Of a stretch of DNA of 31,821 nt, positions 1-14,110 are shown piece by piece. The stretch covers positions 1 through 31,821 of IMG/VR virus record IMGVR_UViG_3300042214_000074; one strand, 5' to 3'. The position numbers and the translations under genes are program-made. The notes below the pieces were generated by a model that searched no databases, was not told where the DNA came from, and saw only the letters and a program-made list of their open reading frames with translations. The stretch comes from a virus. Lineage: Duplodnaviria > Caudoviricetes. The number at the start of each line of letters is the position of its first letter. The stretch's first letter is position 1.

Positions 1-1542
1 ATGGCAAAACAGCCCGCCAACCCGATGATCGCCAAGCGCTTCTCGAAAGCATTCATCAAAGAGTTGCGCGAAGATATCCGAGACGGCGCTCAGAGTAAAC
101 ATATCAAAGAAGGTTGCAGCAATGTCGTGTTCAAGGACACCCGAGACAATGGCGCACGACTGAAACTCCGGCTCAGCAAATCCGGGGTTGCAAGCTTTTT
201 CATCATAGAGCGATTTTTGAACAGCGACGCCCCGAACACGGTGAACATCGCAGGCATTGATGCAGACCTCGATGCGGTGACCGAACGGGCGAAGGAAATG
301 CAGAACAACATCGTCAAAGGCTTGCACCCAGAGCACGGCGAAGGACTGACAACGGAACTTGAGAAGCAGTTCCACCCGTCAATTAGACAGCTGCACGAAG
401 AGCGGCTGGCCCACATGAAAAACAGGAAGCCACGAACCAGGAAGGATTGGATCTATTACTTCGACAAGCTGGGCGACTGGCAAGACATCCAGATTAATGA
501 ACTCACGCCCAAAGCCATCCTATTGAAGCACCTCAGGCTCGAAAAGAAACACAAAGGCTACATGGCGGATAACATCATCAAGTATGTCATCACGCTTATT
601 AACAGCGCCATGAAGAACCCAGAGCCGAATTACAATCGACCGGACCGGAACATCGTCTCGGAGACAATGCGCTACAATGACGCCTTTTTTATCAACCACG
701 GGCAAAGCCGCCGAGCCTCTCGCGCATTCCCCGAGGACAAGTGGGCAAGCATCTGGGAAGCGATCAACGACCTCCGGGAAAAGCAGGCCCTGCGCAACGT
801 CCCCACCCTCTCGCGCACTGCCCATTATTATTTTAAGTTTTTGATGCTCACCGGCATGCGGGATGGCACGGTCAAAACGATTGAATGGCACCAAATTGAT
901 TTGGCGAAAGGAACGATATCCTGGGTGAACGCCGAGGACGTTGAAAAGAAAAAGATTGACCAGAAGGTTTTCGACCTGCCCGTCTGTGATTATATCTGGG
1001 ACATGCTCAAGCAGATGCGCGCCGAGATTGTCGATGAAACCGGAAAAGAGCCCGAGGGCTATCTGTTCAAGTCAGCAGGCCGTGGCAAATCCCCCTATGT
1101 GGAGACCGGCATGCCAGACCAATGGCAAGCAATCAGGGAAAAGGTCGGCGGGGTTGTCGCAACCATGCGGGCGAATGACTTCCGCTCCACGTTCATCTCG
1201 GTCGCGGACCTGCTGGCAATGGATCGGCATGCAGTGAAAGCGTTGATTGACCACAAAGAAAACAAGCGCGACGCCTACGATGGGTATATCGACAGAAAGG
1301 ACCCGGTCAAGCGGCAACACGTGAACCGGATCGCGGGCTATATTCTGGAAACGATTGGGGAACAGACCAAACCCAAGGAGTCGACGATCCTGCCTGAGTA
1401 CATCATGAAATTGGCTCAGAACACGGCACTGAAAGAAGACAAGGAGCCGGAGGAGGTTCTGGCACGCTGGGCTCGCATGGGCAGTCAGCTTGATAAGCTG
1501 CAAACCGACGACCCGGAGATCCTGATGATCAAGAACGGGTGA
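1..1542 (+). CDS. int: Tyrosine recombinase/integrase (P4-like, N-terminal arm-binding domain) with C-terminal RHH/ParD-like extension
   Basis: N-terminal 'FKDTRDNGARLKLRLSKSGVASF' arm-binding-like segment; catalytic R in LTGMR, HxxR variant NDFR, LIDH, and Tyr nucleophile in AYDGY. Confidence 0.9.
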   Translation: MAKQPANPMIAKRFSKAFIKELREDIRDGAQSKHIKEGCSNVVFKDTRDNGARLKLRLSKSGVASFFIIERFLNSDAPNTVNIAGIDADLDAVTERAKEMQNNIVKGLHPEHGEGLTTELEKQFHPSIRQLHEERLAHMKNRKPRTRKDWIYYFDKLGDWQDIQINELTPKAILLKHLRLEKKHKGYMADNIIKYVITLINSAMKNPEPNYNRPDRNIVSETMRYNDAFFINHGQSRRASRAFPEDKWASIWEAINDLREKQALRNVPTLSRTAHYYFKFLMLTGMRDGTVKTIEWHQIDLAKGTISWVNAEDVEKKKIDQKVFDLPVCDYIWDMLKQMRAEIVDETGKEPEGYLFKSAGRGKSPYVETGMPDQWQAIREKVGGVVATMRANDFRSTFISVADLLAMDRHAVKALIDHKENKRDAYDGYIDRKDPVKRQHVNRIAGYILETIGEQTKPKESTILPEYIMKLAQNTALKEDKEPEEVLARWARMGSQLDKLQTDDPEILMIKNG

Positions 1543-1948: not shown

Positions 1949-1977
1949 TTGACGGGGTAGCATTTTTTGACTACAAT
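1949..1977 (+). promoter_or_regulatory. Sigma70-like promoter TTGACG-N17-TACAAT for putative sRNA
   Basis: 5/6 and 5/6 consensus with exact 17-bp spacer; AT-rich upstream. Confidence 0.7.
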
Positions 1978-1983
1978 GTAAAT

Positions 1984-2093
1984 ATGAGATCGGGGAACGT
2001 CTTCGGTTTCATCGGCGGGTCTAGTCAGCCATGTCGTGACAGTGTCTCTTCTTTTTGTGGTTTCGAGCCCCTCTCCGGAGGGGTTTCTCTTTT
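1984..2093 (+). ncRNA. Putative trans-acting antisense sRNA (~110 nt)
   Basis: Promoter upstream and intrinsic terminator downstream; 5' 12-bp hairpin AUGAGAUCGGGG/CUUCGGUUUCAU with 4 G-U pairs (folds fully only on + strand); no credible ORF; complementary to 6066-6107. Confidence 0.6.
2065..2093 (+). terminator. Rho-independent terminator
   Basis: CCCCTC-TCCG-GAGGGG followed by TTTCTCTTTT. Confidence 0.6.
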
Positions 2094-2206: not shown

Positions 2207-5011
2207 TTATGCTGCCTCTACCTCTTTTCTCGCACCACTTTTGCGTTGTGCTTTTTTGTTTCTCCTGGCTCTTGCTGCGTCCTGCATTTCTGCCATTTCA
2301 AGCTGGCGATAATAGTCGCGATTAAGTTTTGACCCCTCCATCTCATGGCTGCGCAATTCCCTACGCTGTTTCAGTTGAGCTTTCAGCTTGCTCTCGCGGT
2401 TGTTCTGCGTTGCCATCTGGGCATCAACTTCGTCGTCCTGAGCGACCTGTTCGTCGCCCCGCTTGTATTCGATCGGGTCAACGTCTGCGGTGGCCATGGC
2501 GTAGCACATCTCAAAATCATCGGTCGCTGTGAAGTTCCAGACGCCGTTTTCGGGCTTTTCAACATCAAGGCCCATCACATCGGTCAATAGCTTCTTGACC
2601 ATGCCAGGGCCCTGCATTCTCGGGCTGATGCGCTTGCTGAATGCCTTCAATGCGTCGCGGTTGCGGATGCTGTGCCCGCTGATTTTCATCTCGCCTTCCT
2701 TGATCCATTTCGCGAACTTGTCGGCCTGCGCCTTGTTGAAAAAGGCCGGGCGGTCTTCCTGATTTTCCAGGCCCATCGGGGCGATGATCAGGCTGTCACT
2801 GTATTTGATCGAGATTGAGAGCTTACTGTCCGCTGCCCATGCTTTCAGGTTCTGAGCCGCAGTTTTGTGGTTCGGCTTGATCGTGTTGATGTTCGTATCA
2901 ATGCAGTCGAACAACTTGCGGATGATGCGGCGGCGCTGCATTTCGTTGACCGTCATGAAGTCGGTGCGCTCTCTTGTTGCCGCTTTCCAGTTCTTGATGA
3001 TGCCACGCATCCAGCCGTTGCGATCCGCCGCAATGAGTTCAAGTGAAAGCTCTGGTGTGCGGTATGCGACGCGCATGTCGAAGTTTTCAAGTTGAACCTC
3101 TTCCTCGCGTGTCTTGCTGCTCTTTTCGCGCAGTTGCTTGGCCTGCTGTTCGCTGATGCGGTTGATGGTTTTGACGGCCTCGGCACGCTCCTGCTCGGAT
3201 TGCAGCTTGCCGTCGTTGAGGCTCATTGCGCCTGTTTTCTTTCCTTCCTGAGCAACCACCCGCTCCATCTCAAAACCCGAATATTTAGCCATGATCAGAG
3301 CCCTGTTCGCGTATTGTTCGCGCATCTTGTTATCGCGTGCGATCTGGTTGATAACCTGCTCAACGCCGGGCTGAGTGCGCAGGTTCTCGATATGGTCGGC
3401 GGAGTATGCTGTGGCCATTATTTCAGTGTGTGCGATGGATTTGAGCACGTCGGTCGGATTGGTTGGCAGCCAACGGTCAACAATCTCGAAAGAAACGTGG
3501 ACCTCTGTCATGGCGCGGAACCGGCCCAGGGTCTGAACGAACTCGGTCGGGAGCACTGTGCCCGAAGCCAGGACGAACACGCCGTCAACGTTGTCCGTGG
3601 TGATACTAAAACCCGAATTTATTGCTGGGGAAATGATAATCAGGTCATGCCCTTCGATGGTCTCATTGATGTTTTTGAGGGCCTGAGCGTTGTCCGGGTT
3701 CTGAACATATTCCTTATTGATAACGAGAACGCGGGCATCGGGCTTGGCTGACAGCATGGTCGGCTTGATGCCGCTGAAATCGTCCTTTTGTGCGCTCTGA
3801 GCCATATCCGCGAACAGAACAACCCGCCCGCCATTTGATAGCAATTCCTGGGCAGTTCGGATGCAGCTCTCGTGGTTCTTGTGCAGTTTGAGCTTGCGCT
3901 TGACCTGCGGCTTGTTGGTGCGGCTGACGATGATTTTCTTGCCGCTCATGCGGGCCAGTTCGTTGATGCTGTGCTCGGATGTCTGGGCATCAACCACAAC
4001 GAATGCGCCGAGGTTGGCAGCGCTCAGGGCCGCGTTGTTTGTGTTGTGAGTGATCAGCCCCCGGTCAAGCAGGGAGCCACTGAGAACCGCTTTTCCTGCG
4101 TTGTGAGTGCGTGTCTGTTCGTATTCGTCAGCAATCAACAGGCTCGCCGCTGTGCGGTATTTTTCGAACTCCGGGAGGTAGCAGATGCTGTTGGGGGTGC
4201 CGACGGCAACCGGGCCTGCGTTGCCTGTTTGCTTGATGATTTGATAATGAGTTGCCTCGCCAAGGTGCTCGACGTGGTGAGATTTACGTGGCGCGAGCAT
4301 TGCCGCCGTTCTGTCTTCGCTCTGGCACTGATTGAGCAGCGTCTGGCAAAACTGTGATTTTCCTTCGCCCAGCTGCCAGGTCATAGCGAACACGCCGCCC
4401 TCTTCCAAAATCATTTTGCGCAGCTCGTCGCGGTCGGCTGGTGCCTCAATAACGTTGGGGTTGCCTGCGCGGATTTGGATGAAGTCGCGGGTTTCAAGAT
4501 CGAACGCCGCAATCGCCTGGTGTAAGTAATCGGCGGCGAGGTCTTTCAGGCTCTTGCCATTGCTGATTTGACGCTCTGGCATCAGGTTGCGGATTTGTTG
4601 CTCTGCATCAGCTGCATCGATTTTGTGCGGAACCAGCTGAGAAAGAAGAGCCGCAATGCTCGGCATGGAGTCAGCCACATCTGAAATGGTTCGGGCGCTT
4701 CGGGCGCGTTCGATTGCATATTCTTGATAGTTGCAGGGGTTAATGATTTGACCATCAACTAAAAGTTGGGCTCGGAAATCTCGGGCTCTTTTTAAAGCGT
4801 CGAATGCGTTGTCTGATGAAACGGAGACCAGAGTGCAGAGGTCGAGACCTTTTTTGTTGTCTTCGCTGATTGATTGCCATGCGTTGTCAGATGTCTCGCC
4901 GAAAACGTTGGCTTTGAAAAGGGTCAGTGGTCCGGTGATGATAAATCTATCGAATTTCATTGTTATCTCGTCAAATTTTTGTGGTTGCAGCTTTTGGTCG
5001 GTCAGAACCAT
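2207..5011 (-). CDS. Replication origin-binding protein / SF2-helicase-like Rep (UL9/CyRepA1-like); alternative start at 4960
   Basis: Walker A-like LGEGKS, Walker B LLIADEYEQ, motif V-like SPAINSGFSI, motif VI-like QTLGRFR; 934 aa. Confidence 0.75.
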   Translation of the reverse strand: MVLTDQKLQPQKFDEITMKFDRFIITGPLTLFKANVFGETSDNAWQSISEDNKKGLDLCTLVSVSSDNAFDALKRARDFRAQLLVDGQIINPCNYQEYAIERARSARTISDVADSMPSIAALLSQLVPHKIDAADAEQQIRNLMPERQISNGKSLKDLAADYLHQAIAAFDLETRDFIQIRAGNPNVIEAPADRDELRKMILEEGGVFAMTWQLGEGKSQFCQTLLNQCQSEDRTAAMLAPRKSHHVEHLGEATHYQIIKQTGNAGPVAVGTPNSICYLPEFEKYRTAASLLIADEYEQTRTHNAGKAVLSGSLLDRGLITHNTNNAALSAANLGAFVVVDAQTSEHSINELARMSGKKIIVSRTNKPQVKRKLKLHKNHESCIRTAQELLSNGGRVVLFADMAQSAQKDDFSGIKPTMLSAKPDARVLVINKEYVQNPDNAQALKNINETIEGHDLIIISPAINSGFSITTDNVDGVFVLASGTVLPTEFVQTLGRFRAMTEVHVSFEIVDRWLPTNPTDVLKSIAHTEIMATAYSADHIENLRTQPGVEQVINQIARDNKMREQYANRALIMAKYSGFEMERVVAQEGKKTGAMSLNDGKLQSEQERAEAVKTINRISEQQAKQLREKSSKTREEEVQLENFDMRVAYRTPELSLELIAADRNGWMRGIIKNWKAATRERTDFMTVNEMQRRRIIRKLFDCIDTNINTIKPNHKTAAQNLKAWAADSKLSISIKYSDSLIIAPMGLENQEDRPAFFNKAQADKFAKWIKEGEMKISGHSIRNRDALKAFSKRISPRMQGPGMVKKLLTDVMGLDVEKPENGVWNFTATDDFEMCYAMATADVDPIEYKRGDEQVAQDDEVDAQMATQNNRESKLKAQLKQRRELRSHEMEGSKLNRDYYRQLEMAEMQDAARARRNKKAQRKSGARKEVEAA

Positions 5012-5330: not shown

Positions 5331-5404
5331 TTTTCCGCGACAGCGGAGCCCCAAAAAAACATCAGTTAAATCAATTTTTAGGATGGCTGCGCTGTCGCGC
5401 AAAA
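5331..5404. repeat. 20-bp imperfect inverted repeat around a 34-bp AT-rich spacer; candidate replication origin
   Basis: TTTTCCGCGACAGCGGAGCC (5331-5350) vs reverse complement of 5385-5404 TTTTGCGCGACAGCGCAGCC, 18/20 identical. Confidence 0.65.
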
Positions 5405-5945: not shown

Positions 5946-6030
5946 AAGAGCCAACACTCGCAACCAGGTATGAACAACACGAGCGGCCCGAGGTGGATAT
6001 CCAACCCATCAAAAAAAGATAATAAAATAG

Positions 6031-6059
6031 TTGACCCCATCATGTTATTAAACGATAAT
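6031..6059 (+). promoter_or_regulatory. Promoter TTGACC-N17-GATAAT for gene 6096 (predicted +1 about 6066)
   Basis: Near-consensus hexamers, 17-bp spacer, A-rich UP-like region. Confidence 0.65.
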
Positions 6060-6095
6060 ATAAATAGACCAATAACAAAAAGAAGAGGCAGCGAC

Positions 6096-6473
6096 ATGAC
6101 TACCCGCACCCGCTACGAACACCCGGCAATCATTCACGACTACATGCGCGAACTGTGCAAGGTGATGATTCAAAAGCGCCACCCGCTCATCAAGGCAGGC
6201 ACCTACGCAAATTGGCACGCGCCCAGCCTCCGGCTCTACATCAACCTGCGTGACTACGAAGGCGTAGACATCTATTTCGCATTCCCCCGCGACTTCGCCG
6301 GACACGCCCTCAGAGTTGAAGACAAAAGGGAAAGGCCCGAGGCAGCCAAGGAAAAGACCCAGCGCCTCGCAGCTCAAAACATCAAAAGGATTTGGGGCGA
6401 CCAGGTGGCGGAAATTGGCGATCTCATTTTCGATCAGTTGGAGCGCATTCAAAAAAAATCAGAAAATAAATAA
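6096..6473 (+). CDS. Hypothetical protein (125 aa); predicted target of the 1984-2093 sRNA
   Basis: GAGG RBS before ATG 6096; own promoter; the longer 5970 start runs through the promoter. Confidence 0.75.
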   Translation: MTTRTRYEHPAIIHDYMRELCKVMIQKRHPLIKAGTYANWHAPSLRLYINLRDYEGVDIYFAFPRDFAGHALRVEDKRERPEAAKEKTQRLAAQNIKRIWGDQVAEIGDLIFDQLERIQKKSENK

Positions 6474-6481
6474 AAAAGTTA

Positions 6482-6549
6482 TTGACAACACAACACCGAA
6501 ACACTAAAATATAGGTATAGGGTTGAGAAACAGCCCAGGCAATCAAGCC
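6482..6549 (+). promoter_or_regulatory. Promoter plus double-hairpin leader cassette, copy 1
   Basis: TTGACA-N17-TAAAAT, then GGGTTG-AGAAA-CAGCCC and GGC-AATCAA-GCC. Confidence 0.85.
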
Positions 6550-6578
6550 AACAACAACAAAAAGAAAGGCGCAAGAAA

Positions 6579-7059: not shown

Positions 7060-7147
7060 GATTACAACCCAACCACATCGTTCACCCCTGCGACTGATCC
7101 ACCTGCCCGTCGTGCGCGGTTATACTGGGTGAAATTGATTACAAAAC

Positions 7148-7417: not shown

Positions 7418-7458
7418 GATATTTTTTCATTATTTTGCCATTTATTTTGTTTTAGTTG

Positions 7459-7527
7459 TTGACAACACAACACCCACCCACTATAATGGGTGTATAGGGT
7501 TGAGAAACAGCCCTCGGCAATAAGGCC
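7459..7527 (+). promoter_or_regulatory. Promoter plus double-hairpin leader cassette, copy 2
   Basis: Perfect TTGACA-N17-TATAAT, then GGGTTG-AGAAA-CAGCCC and GGC-AATAAG-GCC. Confidence 0.9.
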
Positions 7528-7553
7528 AAAACAAAAAGAAAGAGAGATACAAA

Positions 7554-7853
7554 ATGACGAACGAAAACATCAAATTCATCGAAGCAAAGAAAGAAAGCAA
7601 CAGCTCAGTCCGCGCCGAATTTCGAATTGAAGGTCAAAGCGTTTCTGTTGAGTGGAGCAACATCCACGAAGGCACCGGTGAAACGCTCGACACTTTTGGC
7701 CTGACCAACGACGTGAACAGCGTCGACAGCGCCCTGGCCGCCCGAGTGATCGATGCGATCAATGAAGGCGAAGGCGGAGAAGACGACGAACTGTATCTCG
7801 CTATTCGCGACACTTTCGACGCAACTGACGCCGCCGAGCTGGCTGCACAGTGA
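7554..7853 (+). CDS. Small acidic hypothetical protein (99 aa), candidate anti-defence protein
   Basis: About 22 D/E vs about 7 K/R by hand count; own promoter and downstream hairpin. Confidence 0.85.
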   Translation: MTNENIKFIEAKKESNSSVRAEFRIEGQSVSVEWSNIHEGTGETLDTFGLTNDVNSVDSALAARVIDAINEGEGGEDDELYLAIRDTFDATDAAELAAQ

Positions 7854-10726: not shown

Positions 10727-11001
10727 TGAGCGACCTCCTCGAATACGCCGCCCATGATGGTCTTATGGTGTTCGAAAAGGATGGATGCCTGATTATCGAA
10801 GATCCGCGACCCTACGAGCCGAGCATTCCCGAGCTGTCGTTTCCGGCTGACGTGCCCAGGCTCGGGCGATTTCAGCGTTGTGCGCTGTCGTCAGCTATCT
10901 CCTCCCGAAATTCGTCCTCAACCTCAGGCCTCGGCTGTTCCATGAGTTCCCTGCCCTTTTTCCCAATCTCTCGCAGCCTCTCGGGCGTCGGCCTGAACTG
11001 A
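10723..11001 (+). CDS. Hypothetical protein (C-terminal half overlaps the antisense gene)
   Basis: ATGA coupling; protein-like N-terminus, Ser-rich shadow-like C-terminus. Confidence 0.45.
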   Translation: MMSDLLEYAAHDGLMVFEKDGCLIIEDPRPYEPSIPELSFPADVPRLGRFQRCALSSAISSRNSSSTSGLGCSMSSLPFFPISRSLSGVGLN

Positions 11002-11042
11002 CCCCGAAAGCCTGGCTGCGGTTGCTTCTGTTTGTCGGTCAT
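10872..11042 (-). CDS. Small charged protein (56 aa) with KGG-repeat-like motif
   Basis: Strong AAGGAG RBS 6 nt before ATG 11042; PERLREIGKKG resembles the KGG stress motif. Confidence 0.55.
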   Translation of the reverse strand: MTDKQKQPQPGFRGQFRPTPERLREIGKKGRELMEQPRPEVEDEFREEIADDSAQR

Positions 11043-11172
11043 CTCCATCTCCTTTTGGTTCCAATCATAGCAAAAAGCGCGTAACGGTGCGGGATTGCGG
11101 GCGGTTATCCAATGTTTAGTATGGTTTAATCTATATAGTTTCGCGTATAATAACTCAAAATGTGCGCGAAAC

Positions 11173-12207
11173 TTGAACAAGTTCAATTTATACCAGGGCG
11201 ATTGCCTTGAGGTTCTGAAAACCATTCCTGATGCCTCCATCGACAGCATCGTCACCGATCCACCCTACGGGCTGAGCAAGCAGCCGGATATCGCAGAGGT
11301 CCTGACAAAGTGGCTCGCTGGTGAGGATTACACCCACCGGGGCAGCGGCTTTATGGGCAAGAGCTGGGACTCGTTCGTCCCTGGGCCTGCCGTATGGCGT
11401 GAGTGCTTCCGCGTGCTGAAACCGGGCGGTCATTTGATTGCGTTTGCTGGGTCTCGGACTTATGACTTGATGGCCATTGCGGTGCGGCTCGGGGGTTTCG
11501 AGCTGAGAGACCAGGGGTTTTATCTATATGGTTCCGGGTTTCCTAAGTCTCTGGATATCTCGAAAGCTCTCGACAAGGCGGCTGGGGCTGAGCGTGAGGT
11601 TGACGGGAAAGCATTTGGCGTAGGCAAACACAGCAACACGTCGATTGAAGGTGGCGCATTTAATAGCTCGTATGACAAAACAAAGCCCGCAACTCCCGCC
11701 GCCCAAAAATGGCAAGGCTGGGGCACCGCCCTAAAACCGGCACACGAACCCTTCGTCATCGCCCGCAAGCCCTTGGAGGGGACTGTTGCCAACAATGTGA
11801 TGAAGCATGGCGTGGGTGGTCTCAACATTGACGGATGCAGGCATGGGGAGCGGTTCCCAGCCAACCTCCTCCACGACAACAGCGAAGCCGTGGCCGATAT
11901 CCTGGGCGATAAAGCTCGGTATTTTTACGGCACGAAGGCCAACAAGCGGGACCGCAATGAGGGGCTGGAAGACGCCAAGAACACGCACCCAACCGTCAAG
12001 CCCACCGACCTCATGGCCTACCTCTGCCGCCTCGTCACACCCCCAGGCGGCACTGTCCTGGACCCCTTTATGGGCTCTGGCTCAACCGGCAAGGCTTGCG
12101 CGGCTGAGGGCTTCGAGTTCATCGGCGTGGAGATGGATGCCGAATACCTGGCCATTGCTTCGGCCCGGATTTCGTTTGCTTACAACCAAGCCGGGGGTGC
12201 GGCATGA
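11173..12207 (+). CDS. DNA methyltransferase, N6-adenine/N4-cytosine, beta class (start uncertain, TTG 11173)
   Basis: GDCL, TDPPY (motif IV), HPTVKP, VLDPFMGSGSTG (motif I). Confidence 0.93.
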   Translation: MNKFNLYQGDCLEVLKTIPDASIDSIVTDPPYGLSKQPDIAEVLTKWLAGEDYTHRGSGFMGKSWDSFVPGPAVWRECFRVLKPGGHLIAFAGSRTYDLMAIAVRLGGFELRDQGFYLYGSGFPKSLDISKALDKAAGAEREVDGKAFGVGKHSNTSIEGGAFNSSYDKTKPATPAAQKWQGWGTALKPAHEPFVIARKPLEGTVANNVMKHGVGGLNIDGCRHGERFPANLLHDNSEAVADILGDKARYFYGTKANKRDRNEGLEDAKNTHPTVKPTDLMAYLCRLVTPPGGTVLDPFMGSGSTGKACAAEGFEFIGVEMDAEYLAIASARISFAYNQAGGAA

Positions 12208-13148
12208 GTTTCGAGCTGCACCTGGGGGATTGCCTGGAAAAGATGAAGGATATCCCGGATGGGTCGGTGGATGCGGTTATTTGTGATCCGCCGTATGGGA
12301 CTATAAATGGCGTGGTTGCTGAAGAGTCTCACCACGGCATGAAGGGAAAAACTGCCTGGGATATCTCAATAGAAACGGCGGCCATGTTCGCGGAATGCAA
12401 TCGAGTCCTGCGCACAAATGGGGCTCTTTTGCTGTTTGCGCAGGAGCCATATACCAGTCACCTGATCACCAACGCCCACGCCAACCTGCCTTTTAGTTAC
12501 CGCCTGACGTGGCTGAAAGATCATTTTGCCAATTCGCTGATCGCAAAGAAGGCCCCGGTCAATTACACCGAGGATATCTGCGTTTTCTTCAAGAAATACG
12601 ACACCCTCGCCCAGCATCCGTTGCGGGATTATTCGAAAACCGTCATGAGTTTCATCGGCAAGGGCCTGAAACAAATCAATACCGAGCTGGGGCATCGTCG
12701 TGCTGAGCATTTCTTCTATGTGGACTCGACCCAGTTCGGGCTCTGCACCCCCAAAACCTACGCCGAACTCTGCGAGCTTTACGGCATCAGCAGCCAGCCC
12801 TGGTTCAAGTCATACGACGAAATGAAGGAGATCGACCGCAGGTTCACCCGCAGGTTCAACCTCCCAGAAGGCCAGAAATTCAAGTCCAACGTCCTGCAAT
12901 ACCGCAAGGACTACACCGGCCAACACCCCACCCAAAAGCCCGTGGCGCTGATGGAAGACCTGGTGCACACCTACACCCGCCCCGGCGATACGGTTCTGGA
13001 TTTCACCATGGGCAGCGGCTCCACCGGCGTAGCAGCTGGCAACCTGGGGCGGCGTTTCATTGGCATCGAGATGGACGAGGGCTATTTCGATATCGCCCGG
13101 TCTCGGGTTGGGGTTGCTTACAAACAAACAGAGGAGGAGGTGGCGTGA
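12204..13148 (+). CDS. DNA methyltransferase, N6-adenine/N4-cytosine, beta class
   Basis: GDCL, CDPPY, HPTQKP, VLDFTMGSGSTG; ATGA overlap with the first MTase. Confidence 0.93.
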   Translation: MSFELHLGDCLEKMKDIPDGSVDAVICDPPYGTINGVVAEESHHGMKGKTAWDISIETAAMFAECNRVLRTNGALLLFAQEPYTSHLITNAHANLPFSYRLTWLKDHFANSLIAKKAPVNYTEDICVFFKKYDTLAQHPLRDYSKTVMSFIGKGLKQINTELGHRRAEHFFYVDSTQFGLCTPKTYAELCELYGISSQPWFKSYDEMKEIDRRFTRRFNLPEGQKFKSNVLQYRKDYTGQHPTQKPVALMEDLVHTYTRPGDTVLDFTMGSGSTGVAAGNLGRRFIGIEMDEGYFDIARSRVGVAYKQTEEEVA

Positions 13149-14110
13149 TTGGATTGATTATTAAGGGCTCGCAAGTGGTGGCTGGTTGTGCGGCGAGAGC
13201 ACTGGGCGTTTTACGCGGTAGCGTGCGCAGCAAGAAAGAGATTTTTATTGATCATGAGGCTGATTTCGATGAGGTCGTTGATGCGGTCGGTAAGCTGGCC
13301 GAGGACCCATCCATAACAATTTCATTTACGGGTGTCAGAAAGCCTCTGTTTCTCGAATTCGTTCAGGATTTCTTCCCGATCATCCATGATTTTGAGTTCG
13401 AGATTGCTGAGCACCACACGAACTATGCAATCGCCCTTGAGCGGTGGTTTCTTGGGCGGGATCGCAAATCGGTCATTAATGCGCCGCATAGATACAGCAA
13501 CACCAGCCTGCTGACGATGGGCATTATCTGGGCGCTTATCAAAAACCCTTCTTCTCGCTTCGTTTATTTGAGCTTTTCCGAGTGCCTTGTCAAAGAGGCA
13601 TTGAGCCAGATCAGCGACCTGGTCAATTCCGAGAAATTCCAGGAAGCGTTCCCGTCTCTCGGTTTCAGGGCTGAGGGCGGACGACTGATAACAAGCCAGG
13701 GCGGCGGCGTTTCTGGGGCCTTCACGTTTGACCTGAAAGCGGTCCGAAGCCAGAAGGAATGGGTTTGCGGGTCTTTTAGGCGCTCATCGACTGGTGGGCT
13801 TGTAGTGGATCACGCCATTCCTCCATCCCACGCTGATGACGTTCCCGAAAGATATCTCCCAATGCTTCAAGAGCTGGTCGGCGGTCGCGGTGAGGGTTTG
13901 CCGGTCCTTCTTTCTTGCCCGCGATTTGGCAAGAACGATCCGACAGCAATCGCCCTGAAATGCTGCGATTGGACTGCTCGTGTCACGCGCTTGCCTGCCG
14001 AGAAGGATGGAGTGCCAACGTGGCCGGGCAAGCTCAACGCGACGGATATCGCAATGAGAAGACAGACAAGCCCGGAATTGTTTTCAAGGCTTTACCAGCA
14101 GGAAGTTTAA
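13145..14110 (+). CDS. Degenerate terminase-large-subunit ATPase-domain paralogue (pseudo-TerL), no nuclease domain
   Basis: Collinear with TerL N-half, but Walker A PHRYSNT vs PPRYGKT and Walker B LVVDH vs IIIDD; ends at LYQQEV where TerL has QYQQTP. Confidence 0.8.
   Translation: MIGLIIKGSQVVAGCAARALGVLRGSVRSKKEIFIDHEADFDEVVDAVGKLAEDPSITISFTGVRKPLFLEFVQDFFPIIHDFEFEIAEHHTNYAIALERWFLGRDRKSVINAPHRYSNTSLLTMGIIWALIKNPSSRFVYLSFSECLVKEALSQISDLVNSEKFQEAFPSLGFRAEGGRLITSQGGGVSGAFTFDLKAVRSQKEWVCGSFRRSSTGGLVVDHAIPPSHADDVPERYLPMLQELVGGRGEGLPVLLSCPRFGKNDPTAIALKCCDWTARVTRLPAEKDGVPTWPGKLNATDIAMRRQTSPELFSRLYQQEV

Follow-up and report, generated by a model that had tools for sequence, protein, structure and literature searches.

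A provirus record of 31,821 nt, analysed in full and hereafter called the window, carries a predicted small RNA (sRNA) gene just past the end of its replication gene, on the opposite strand, and the question this locus raises is which mRNA the RNA is there to control. A preliminary description had answered in favour of gene 6096, proposing an RNA-level switch that would be either immunity-like or a trans type I toxin–antitoxin system; it had missed an 11-nt match between positions 2052–2062 of the sRNA and the leader of the replication gene, repA (4976–4986, minus strand). The analysis reported here confirmed the pairing observation, supported the interpretation in part and redirected it from 6096 to repA. 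On sequence grounds, the sRNA is quite probably a trans-encoded antisense repressor of repA translation which, in this element, would also cover 6096, 6579 and 7554 (Table 1).

Table 1. Coordinates of the sRNA gene, its predicted targets and neighbouring features in the window
Feature	Position	Strand	Remarks
Integrase	1–1542		
sRNA promoter, sigma-70-type	1949–1977	+	TTGACG-17-TACAAT
Predicted sRNA	1984–2093	+	~110 nt; –10 box taken to set the start, U tail the end
5′ hairpin SL1	1984–2012	+	4/9 pairs changed on both sides (six elements)
Second hairpin SL2	2014–2035	+	Conserved loop containing UAGUCA
Variable seed	2043–2063	+	Predicted to pair with the leaders of repA, 6096, 6579, 7554 and 11042
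Intrinsic terminator	2065–2093	+	Stem 2065–2086; conserved, one double change
Terminator-like hairpin below repA	2155–2170	–	Comparable hairpin, by eye, in L001, L003 and L005
repA-like replication gene	2207–4960	–	Start M18 at 4960; in-frame ATG upstream at 5011
Conserved predicted target, repA leader	4964–4986	–	11-nt exact match 4976–4986 plus SD region
Gene 6096 promoter	6031–6059	+	
Strongest predicted target in the window, 6096 leader and start	6066–6100	+	
Gene 6096	6096–6473	+	125 aa, hydrophilic, no assigned family
Predicted co-target, 6579 leader	6553–6572	+	Promoter-unit copy 1; –16.7 kcal/mol, rank 4/34
Predicted co-target, 7554 leader	7531–7559	+	Promoter-unit copy 2; –19.6 kcal/mol, rank 2/34
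Possible target, start of 56-aa ORF (11042–10872)	11033–11062	–	–16.6 kcal/mol
RHH-like ORF, 72 aa	31603–31821	–	Pfam RHH_1 E 0.01; phrog_536 E 0.004; lies where the record is cut

The window encodes an integrase, a replication protein, a RuvC-like resolvase, small early genes, two methyltransferases, a terminase, and head and tail genes, and ends on the right with a tape measure gene followed by the RHH-like ORF; the completeness of the provirus is estimated at 28%. GenBank phages contained no DNA relative of the window, and only one of four genome loci, in Marinobacter flavimaris, had a full-length relative of the integrase (43%). The repA-like gene matches phrog_4913 (replication, E 2e-28) and, below the cut-off, CyRepA1 (NF042913, E 1e-41), and its product, which shares 22% with RepA of VP882 and phiHAP-1, is a distant relative of these proteins and of the CyRepA1 model. 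The start codon assigned to it, M18, is invariant in nine aligned homologues; if the ATG at 5011 were the true start, the target site would fall in the coding sequence. The sRNA and repA transcripts probably do not overlap, because a terminator-like hairpin sits below repA.

Both the promoter and the terminator stem of the sRNA gene lie where the preliminary description had placed them. Close relatives of the locus were reached by Rep alignment (5 metagenome loci, representing 3 distinct elements), through the integrase (L006), and by a DNA search of 191 Marinobacter-genus genomes, two of which matched (locus L025 in genome G169). All five close relatives keep the promoter, the 5′ hairpin, the hairpin with the UAGUCA loop, a variable middle and the terminator, at a constant position between the integrase and the end of repA. 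Of the six aligned elements, all retain the –10 box and four the –35 box; the consensus fold is made up of three separate hairpins without a closing stem, and 7 of its 25 pairs change on both sides, with a covariation score reached by 0/500 shuffles and slid controls dropping to 30–58% paired. In SL2, 97% of the cells are paired and two of the six pairs are changed on both sides. The loop of this hairpin is invariant in 6/6 close elements, and no covarying partner for it was found; the motif CUGACC, conserved in all six close repA leaders and likewise without covariation, could be a second contact for it. A search with the RNA model matched 2/151 genus genomes. Rfam covariance models returned one chance match to the window (E 3.2) and, among six relative loci, nothing beyond a tRNA and a weak rdlD match, with no C4 or IsrK.

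The earlier statement that the transcript holds no credible ORF needs qualification, since a leaderless 113-codon ORF (1984–2325) opens at its first position and crosses the terminator, but this ORF is not conserved in the five relatives, and no reading frame is, on either strand. The possibility that the minus strand is just a decayed duplicated gene start, which had been named as the case that would overturn the proposal, does not hold up, given the covarying structure and the lack of any conserved frame; read from the matching ATG, the minus strand meets a stop after three codons. An att site at the locus was also rejected, the tRNA-derived junctions of the relatives (read by eye) preceding the integrase. 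As an independent gene with an intrinsic terminator and U tail, a single-stranded seed and several imperfect targets, the putative sRNA has the sequence features of an Hfq-dependent trans-encoded sRNA.

Within the window, the strongest predicted pairing is that with 6096, and base-by-base inspection bore out the contacts proposed for it: 16 contiguous pairs between 2043–2058 and 6075–6090, eight between 2030–2037 and 6091–6098, and five between 2059–2063 and 6066–6070, with one G–U in each. The duplex of 2013–2064 with the 6096 leader (–50.7 kcal/mol) was the best of 3168 genome windows. The energy of a tighter duplex (–50.3 kcal/mol; z about –6) was reached by 0/3000 shuffles of either partner, and the 13-nt Watson–Crick run with 6096 was matched anywhere in the genome by 2/200 shuffled seeds. 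When 34 curated starts were ranked with accessibility taken into account, 6096 came first (–24.3 kcal/mol) and 7554 second, followed by a terminase-fragment start at 13145 (–17.6), 6579 and, only fifth, repA (–15.5), which places four early targets (6096, 7554, 6579 and repA) within the top five. The 10-mer ACAAAAAGAA was found at 6557 and 7531 as described, and the ranks of 6579 and 7554 make them plausible co-targets. The start at 13145 is that of a 321-aa ORF (13145–14110) which has partial similarity to the terminase large subunit and directly precedes the full terL. The minus-strand ORF at 11042 was outside the list of 34; this ORF (10872–11048) has a strong SD and a weak YafN antitoxin match (E 7e-4), and its start region is 73% alike to a stretch upstream of repA (repeat D7).

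Comparison of the close elements points to repA. In each of them, the stretch before the terminator pairs with the element's own repA leader: over 11 nt (exact) plus the SD in the window, 11 nt in L005, 12 bp (one G–U) in L025, 8 + 6 nt in both L001 and L006, and 7 nt plus a short SD helix in L003. The leaders of the window and L001 differ at the same position and the seeds differ correspondingly. L006 combines a scaffold near-identical to that of the window with a Rep of only 26% identity, and has a seed that matches its own SD region; in G169, the seed was read first and the helix over the repA SD was found afterwards. In a 6 × 6 matrix of seeds against repA leaders, the own pair was the best in 6/6 rows and the diagonal ranked 1/720 permutations; cofolding of the whole RNAs was less clean (2/720 by energy, 14/720 by z). 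With accessibility included, repA ranked first among 13 starts in L025, 11 in L001 and 10 in L003 (where the top rank stems from the SL2 region, not the seed), first among 33 in the more distant element L028, and only third of eight in L006. Promoter–hairpins–seed–terminator anatomy, compensatory pairs and the matching of each RNA to its own repA through a swap of Rep are thereby established at the level of sequence.

A Rep profile detected 8/191 Marinobacter-genus genomes, at nine places. Four far elements (L028, L029, L030 and L032), whose Reps share 23–26% identity with that of the window in the aligned part, carry a unit of a –10 box, about 100–135 nt and a terminator, located downstream of repA on the opposite strand. 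In all four, whose downstream region is intact, the exact matches to the repA start region within 1.7 kb are longest (9, 12, 11 and 9 nt) inside this promoter-to-terminator unit; a further site falls at the SD or close to it. The far RNAs cannot be aligned with the close ones (the model gave E 0.034 for L032, 2.8 for L028 and no match for the other two). When ten elements were compared (the window, L001, L003, L005, L006, L025, L028, L029, L030 and L032), the longest helix averaged 9.5 nt for own pairs versus 6.2 nt for cross pairs, a result reached by 0/200,000 permutations, while the far four alone ranked 1/24 by two helices and 2/24 by longest helix; these figures, like those for the same-size windows below, are somewhat favourable, because the limits of the RNAs, the seed and leader windows and two of the far Rep starts were chosen manually once the pairings were known. 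A match to the own repA leader is present in 10/10 elements and weak in one of them; the L032 RNA has a longer match to the L028 leader (11 nt) than to its own (9 nt). Same-size windows of the locus equalled the match in 0/768 cases for the window, 13/221 for L001, 31/450 for L006 and 111/314 for L003, and in 0/124, 0/334, 0/492, 2/531, 7/444 and 19/498 for the remaining six. The matrix left out L031 (an IS and the contig end lie just past repA), L026 (start uncertain), L023/L033 (weak match), L027 (an 890-bp contig) and L043 (core motif check only); in L026, relaxase-like genes follow repA and no such RNA unit was seen. Searches of viral contigs with 6096, Rep, the integrase and two RNA patterns gave nothing new, one of them yielding only copies of L029/L031; 80 RuvC loci gave only a copy of L031, genome contigs with Rep nothing new, and samples of the order and class (about 400 genomes each) one new long Rep.

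These comparisons bear on what the RNA does in different ways. A dedicated switch for 6096, an antirepressor or toxin gene, with the repA match secondary, would fit the pairing with 6096, which is the longest and strongest in the window (–24.3 versus –15.5 kcal/mol for repA), spanning the predicted +1 through the start codon; moreover, a Rep homologue and the only 6096 homologue both have 7718 as longest contig, which suggests linkage. Such a role is nonetheless unlikely, as the five close relatives keep the RNA and have no 6096 homologue, and L001 has an unrelated gene behind the same promoter as 6096 that its RNA does not match. Loss of 6096 from these relatives is possible because they look decayed, with a frameshifted resolvase and no morphogenesis genes seen in the fetched DNA. 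Type I toxins are usually small and hydrophobic, although soluble ones exist; the 6096 product (GRAVY –0.76, best 19-residue mean hydropathy 0.4) has no membrane helix, gave no match in family searches and only Atlas matches below the usable bar, and a protein search found one other cluster, 88% identical. What is supported in the preliminary description is a conserved non-coding RNA gene, predicted to act in trans on translation starts, with 6096 as its strongest predicted target in the window. A system built around 6096 has no such support, the conserved and covarying match being the one to the own repA leader; nor has the toxin–antitoxin version, given the properties of the protein and the fact that 0/5 close relatives bearing the RNA carry 6096.

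The RNA might instead pair with the repA leader and act by premature transcription termination or mRNA decay. The P4 CI RNA pairs at two sites and causes termination (PMC4825925), and in the far four one site lies 37–50 nt upstream of the repA start, near the predicted mRNA 5′-end, with the second at or near the SD. In most elements, however, the pairing extends to the SD or the start region, the repA leaders are A-rich and the window's repA leader contains no terminator-like match, all of which makes this mode of action improbable. Somewhat less probable still is that the matches reflect generic complementarity between pyrimidine-rich and purine-rich sequences, the real targets being host or helper-phage mRNAs reached through the UAGUCA loop. 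The invariance of that loop without a covarying partner would fit, as would the 5′ module of the L006 seed, unmatched in its own element; yet own pairs clearly outdo cross pairs drawn from those same purine-rich leaders, and dinucleotide shuffles of the leaders reached the two-helix score in ≤2/150 trials for 6/10 elements.

If repression of repA translation is the function, the sRNA would be made in the lysogen from its own promoter, past the end of repA and on the opposite strand, and its seed would pair in trans over the ribosome-binding region of repA, blocking translation. Hfq involvement is possible, given the U tail and the A-rich leaders. With repA off, the integrated element would not replicate. 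The same seed would cover the early genes 6096, 7554 and 6579 and so act as a multi-target brake on the early lytic programme, which would be held down together because one U-rich seed fits the leaders of these genes, which share ACAAAAAGAA. Since the seeds are element-specific, immunity is predicted against the same phage and not against relatives. Relief of repression through titration by 6096 mRNA is a speculation. In L028, two small genes have 9- and 10-nt matches (one ranks 7/33, the other outside the top 7), a hint of multi-target action. The 5′ segment of the L006 seed (12044–12057 region) has no match within its own element and fits, by eye and over 11 bp, an early-gene leader of L025 (6897, window orientation); this segment may be left over from a target since lost, or be directed at relatives.

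By analogy, the sRNA would work like P4 CI and P1 C4 while belonging to neither. P4 CI RNA shuts down P4's own replication genes by contacts with two sites (PMC4825925, PMC3632133). Like the sRNA as proposed, it is a small antisense RNA whose short, imperfect pairings silence the element's replication genes during lysogeny; it is unlike in being processed out of the leader of its target operon, with termination at seqA/seqC, whereas the sRNA described here has its own promoter and terminator past the repA 3′-end on the other strand and is predicted to pair over the ribosome-binding region. In the C4 RNAs of P1/P7, variable loops block the RBS and a few changed bases set heteroimmunity (PMC5320573, PMC12197685). 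A fixed scaffold with variable pairing segments is common to both, and the far elements show a comparable two-site contact; C4, however, derives from the same operon by RNase P processing and acts against an antirepressor, whereas here the replication protein is the conserved target and a single-stranded segment ahead of an intrinsic terminator forms the seed. RNAs of the C4/P4 CI family fold into a three-stem cloverleaf that is closed by a P1 stem and cut by RNase P; the consensus obtained here shows three separate hairpins and no such closing stem. Pairing with the element's own early or replication mRNA by short variable segments is found here too (predicted, and covarying), but an origin in the operon leader is not, the sRNA being convergent with repA and about 2.9 kb from its target.

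Plasmid rep antisense RNAs such as pLS1 RNAII and the pT181 countertranscripts are cis-encoded and perfectly complementary (PMC8383071). Like them, the sRNA would be a constitutive small RNA limiting a rep gene, and would set incompatibility groups; in contrast, the sRNA (1984–2093) and its target (4964–4986) are about 3 kb apart and their pairing is interrupted. Because the RNA is encoded about 3 kb from its target, seed and target must co-evolve, and they do. The phage RNAs sar, OOP and aQ are in cis position. P22 sar, lambda OOP and aQ are antisense RNAs against ant, cII and Q (PMC12197685), and SviR of the V. cholerae PLE acts in trans on several targets (10.1101/2022.04.08.487710); all are phage- or satellite-encoded RNAs controlling early or regulatory genes, and none is described in the available text of these accounts as targeting its own replication initiator. 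Identity with VpdS of VP882 was rejected, as there is no RNA-sized gap after repA in VP882 (only that position was compared). In the full-text literature covered, outside which lie most subscription papers, the primary P4, P1 and N15 work among them, no description of this RNA was found, nor of any trans-encoded prophage RNA against its own rep leader; a review's supplementary list of 38 uncharacterised phage sRNAs could bear on novelty.

The earlier remark that no CI-like repressor is recognisable holds insofar as the window has no HTH_3 or S24 match, but this does not establish that CI is missing, because the completeness estimate is 28% and the record ends in the RHH-like ORF, a candidate protein repressor. 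In four N15-like phages, a CI-type gene precedes repA and coding genes directly follow it; together with the lack of HTH_3/S24 matches in the window, this arrangement fits an RNA standing in for CI, with the reservation that the record is incomplete and has the RHH-like ORF. The prophage of G053 has an HTH_3 gene at its far end. A CI in the relative G060 was rejected: its S24 protein sits in an apparent adjacent lambdoid prophage and is uninformative either way because that prophage has its own replication genes. A bolder and rather doubtful proposal is that the RNA is the main repressor of Marinobacter-type prophages, a fixed scaffold with a re-writable guide in which seeds alone define immunity groups. 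The guide would then be retuned at swaps of the repA module and gain segments for early genes, and induction could come from an mRNA such as that of 6096 out-competing repA.

According to the accounts cited, antisense RNAs that control rep genes are either cis-encoded, in plasmids, or, in the case of P4 CI, excised from the leader of the operon under control; here, a free-standing RNA gene has kept pace with its repA leader through changes of sequence and the exchange of the whole gene. The elements would offer a natural covariation series for sRNA seeds gaining or changing targets, and a testable route to lysogeny control in prophages without a recognised CI beside repA. As Marinobacter flavimaris carries two such elements (L006 and L032), both cognate and cross combinations could be tested in a single strain.

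Several further features of these elements were recorded. L028/L054 (G053:C1, about 521000–551400) is a near-complete prophage beside a tRNA gene, with the morphogenesis gene order of the window and no integrase recognised in its ORF list. An inverted repeat with 20-nt arms (5331–5404) between repA and the resolvase, kept in relatives including L006, is a candidate replication origin. The motif GATGTTGTTCAT, directly after the integrase stop (1546–1572), is kept in all six close elements, and an inverted near-copy follows the resolvase gene (5962–5988). A promoter unit consisting of a conserved hairpin (loop AGAAA) and an A/C-rich leader stands ahead of unrelated small genes in three copies (6477–6563, 7454–7540 and, on the minus strand, 21303–21212) and also occurs in L025 and L003; the leader of the third copy is unmatched by the sRNA (–5.5 kcal/mol). 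Finally, a 23-nt inverted pair with a 96% match (1895–1917 and 7076–7098) has one copy upstream of ORF 1852 and the sRNA promoter and the other upstream of gene 7148; a shared protein-binding site is suggested, because L025 and L003 hold a different but mutually similar pair at the same two places.
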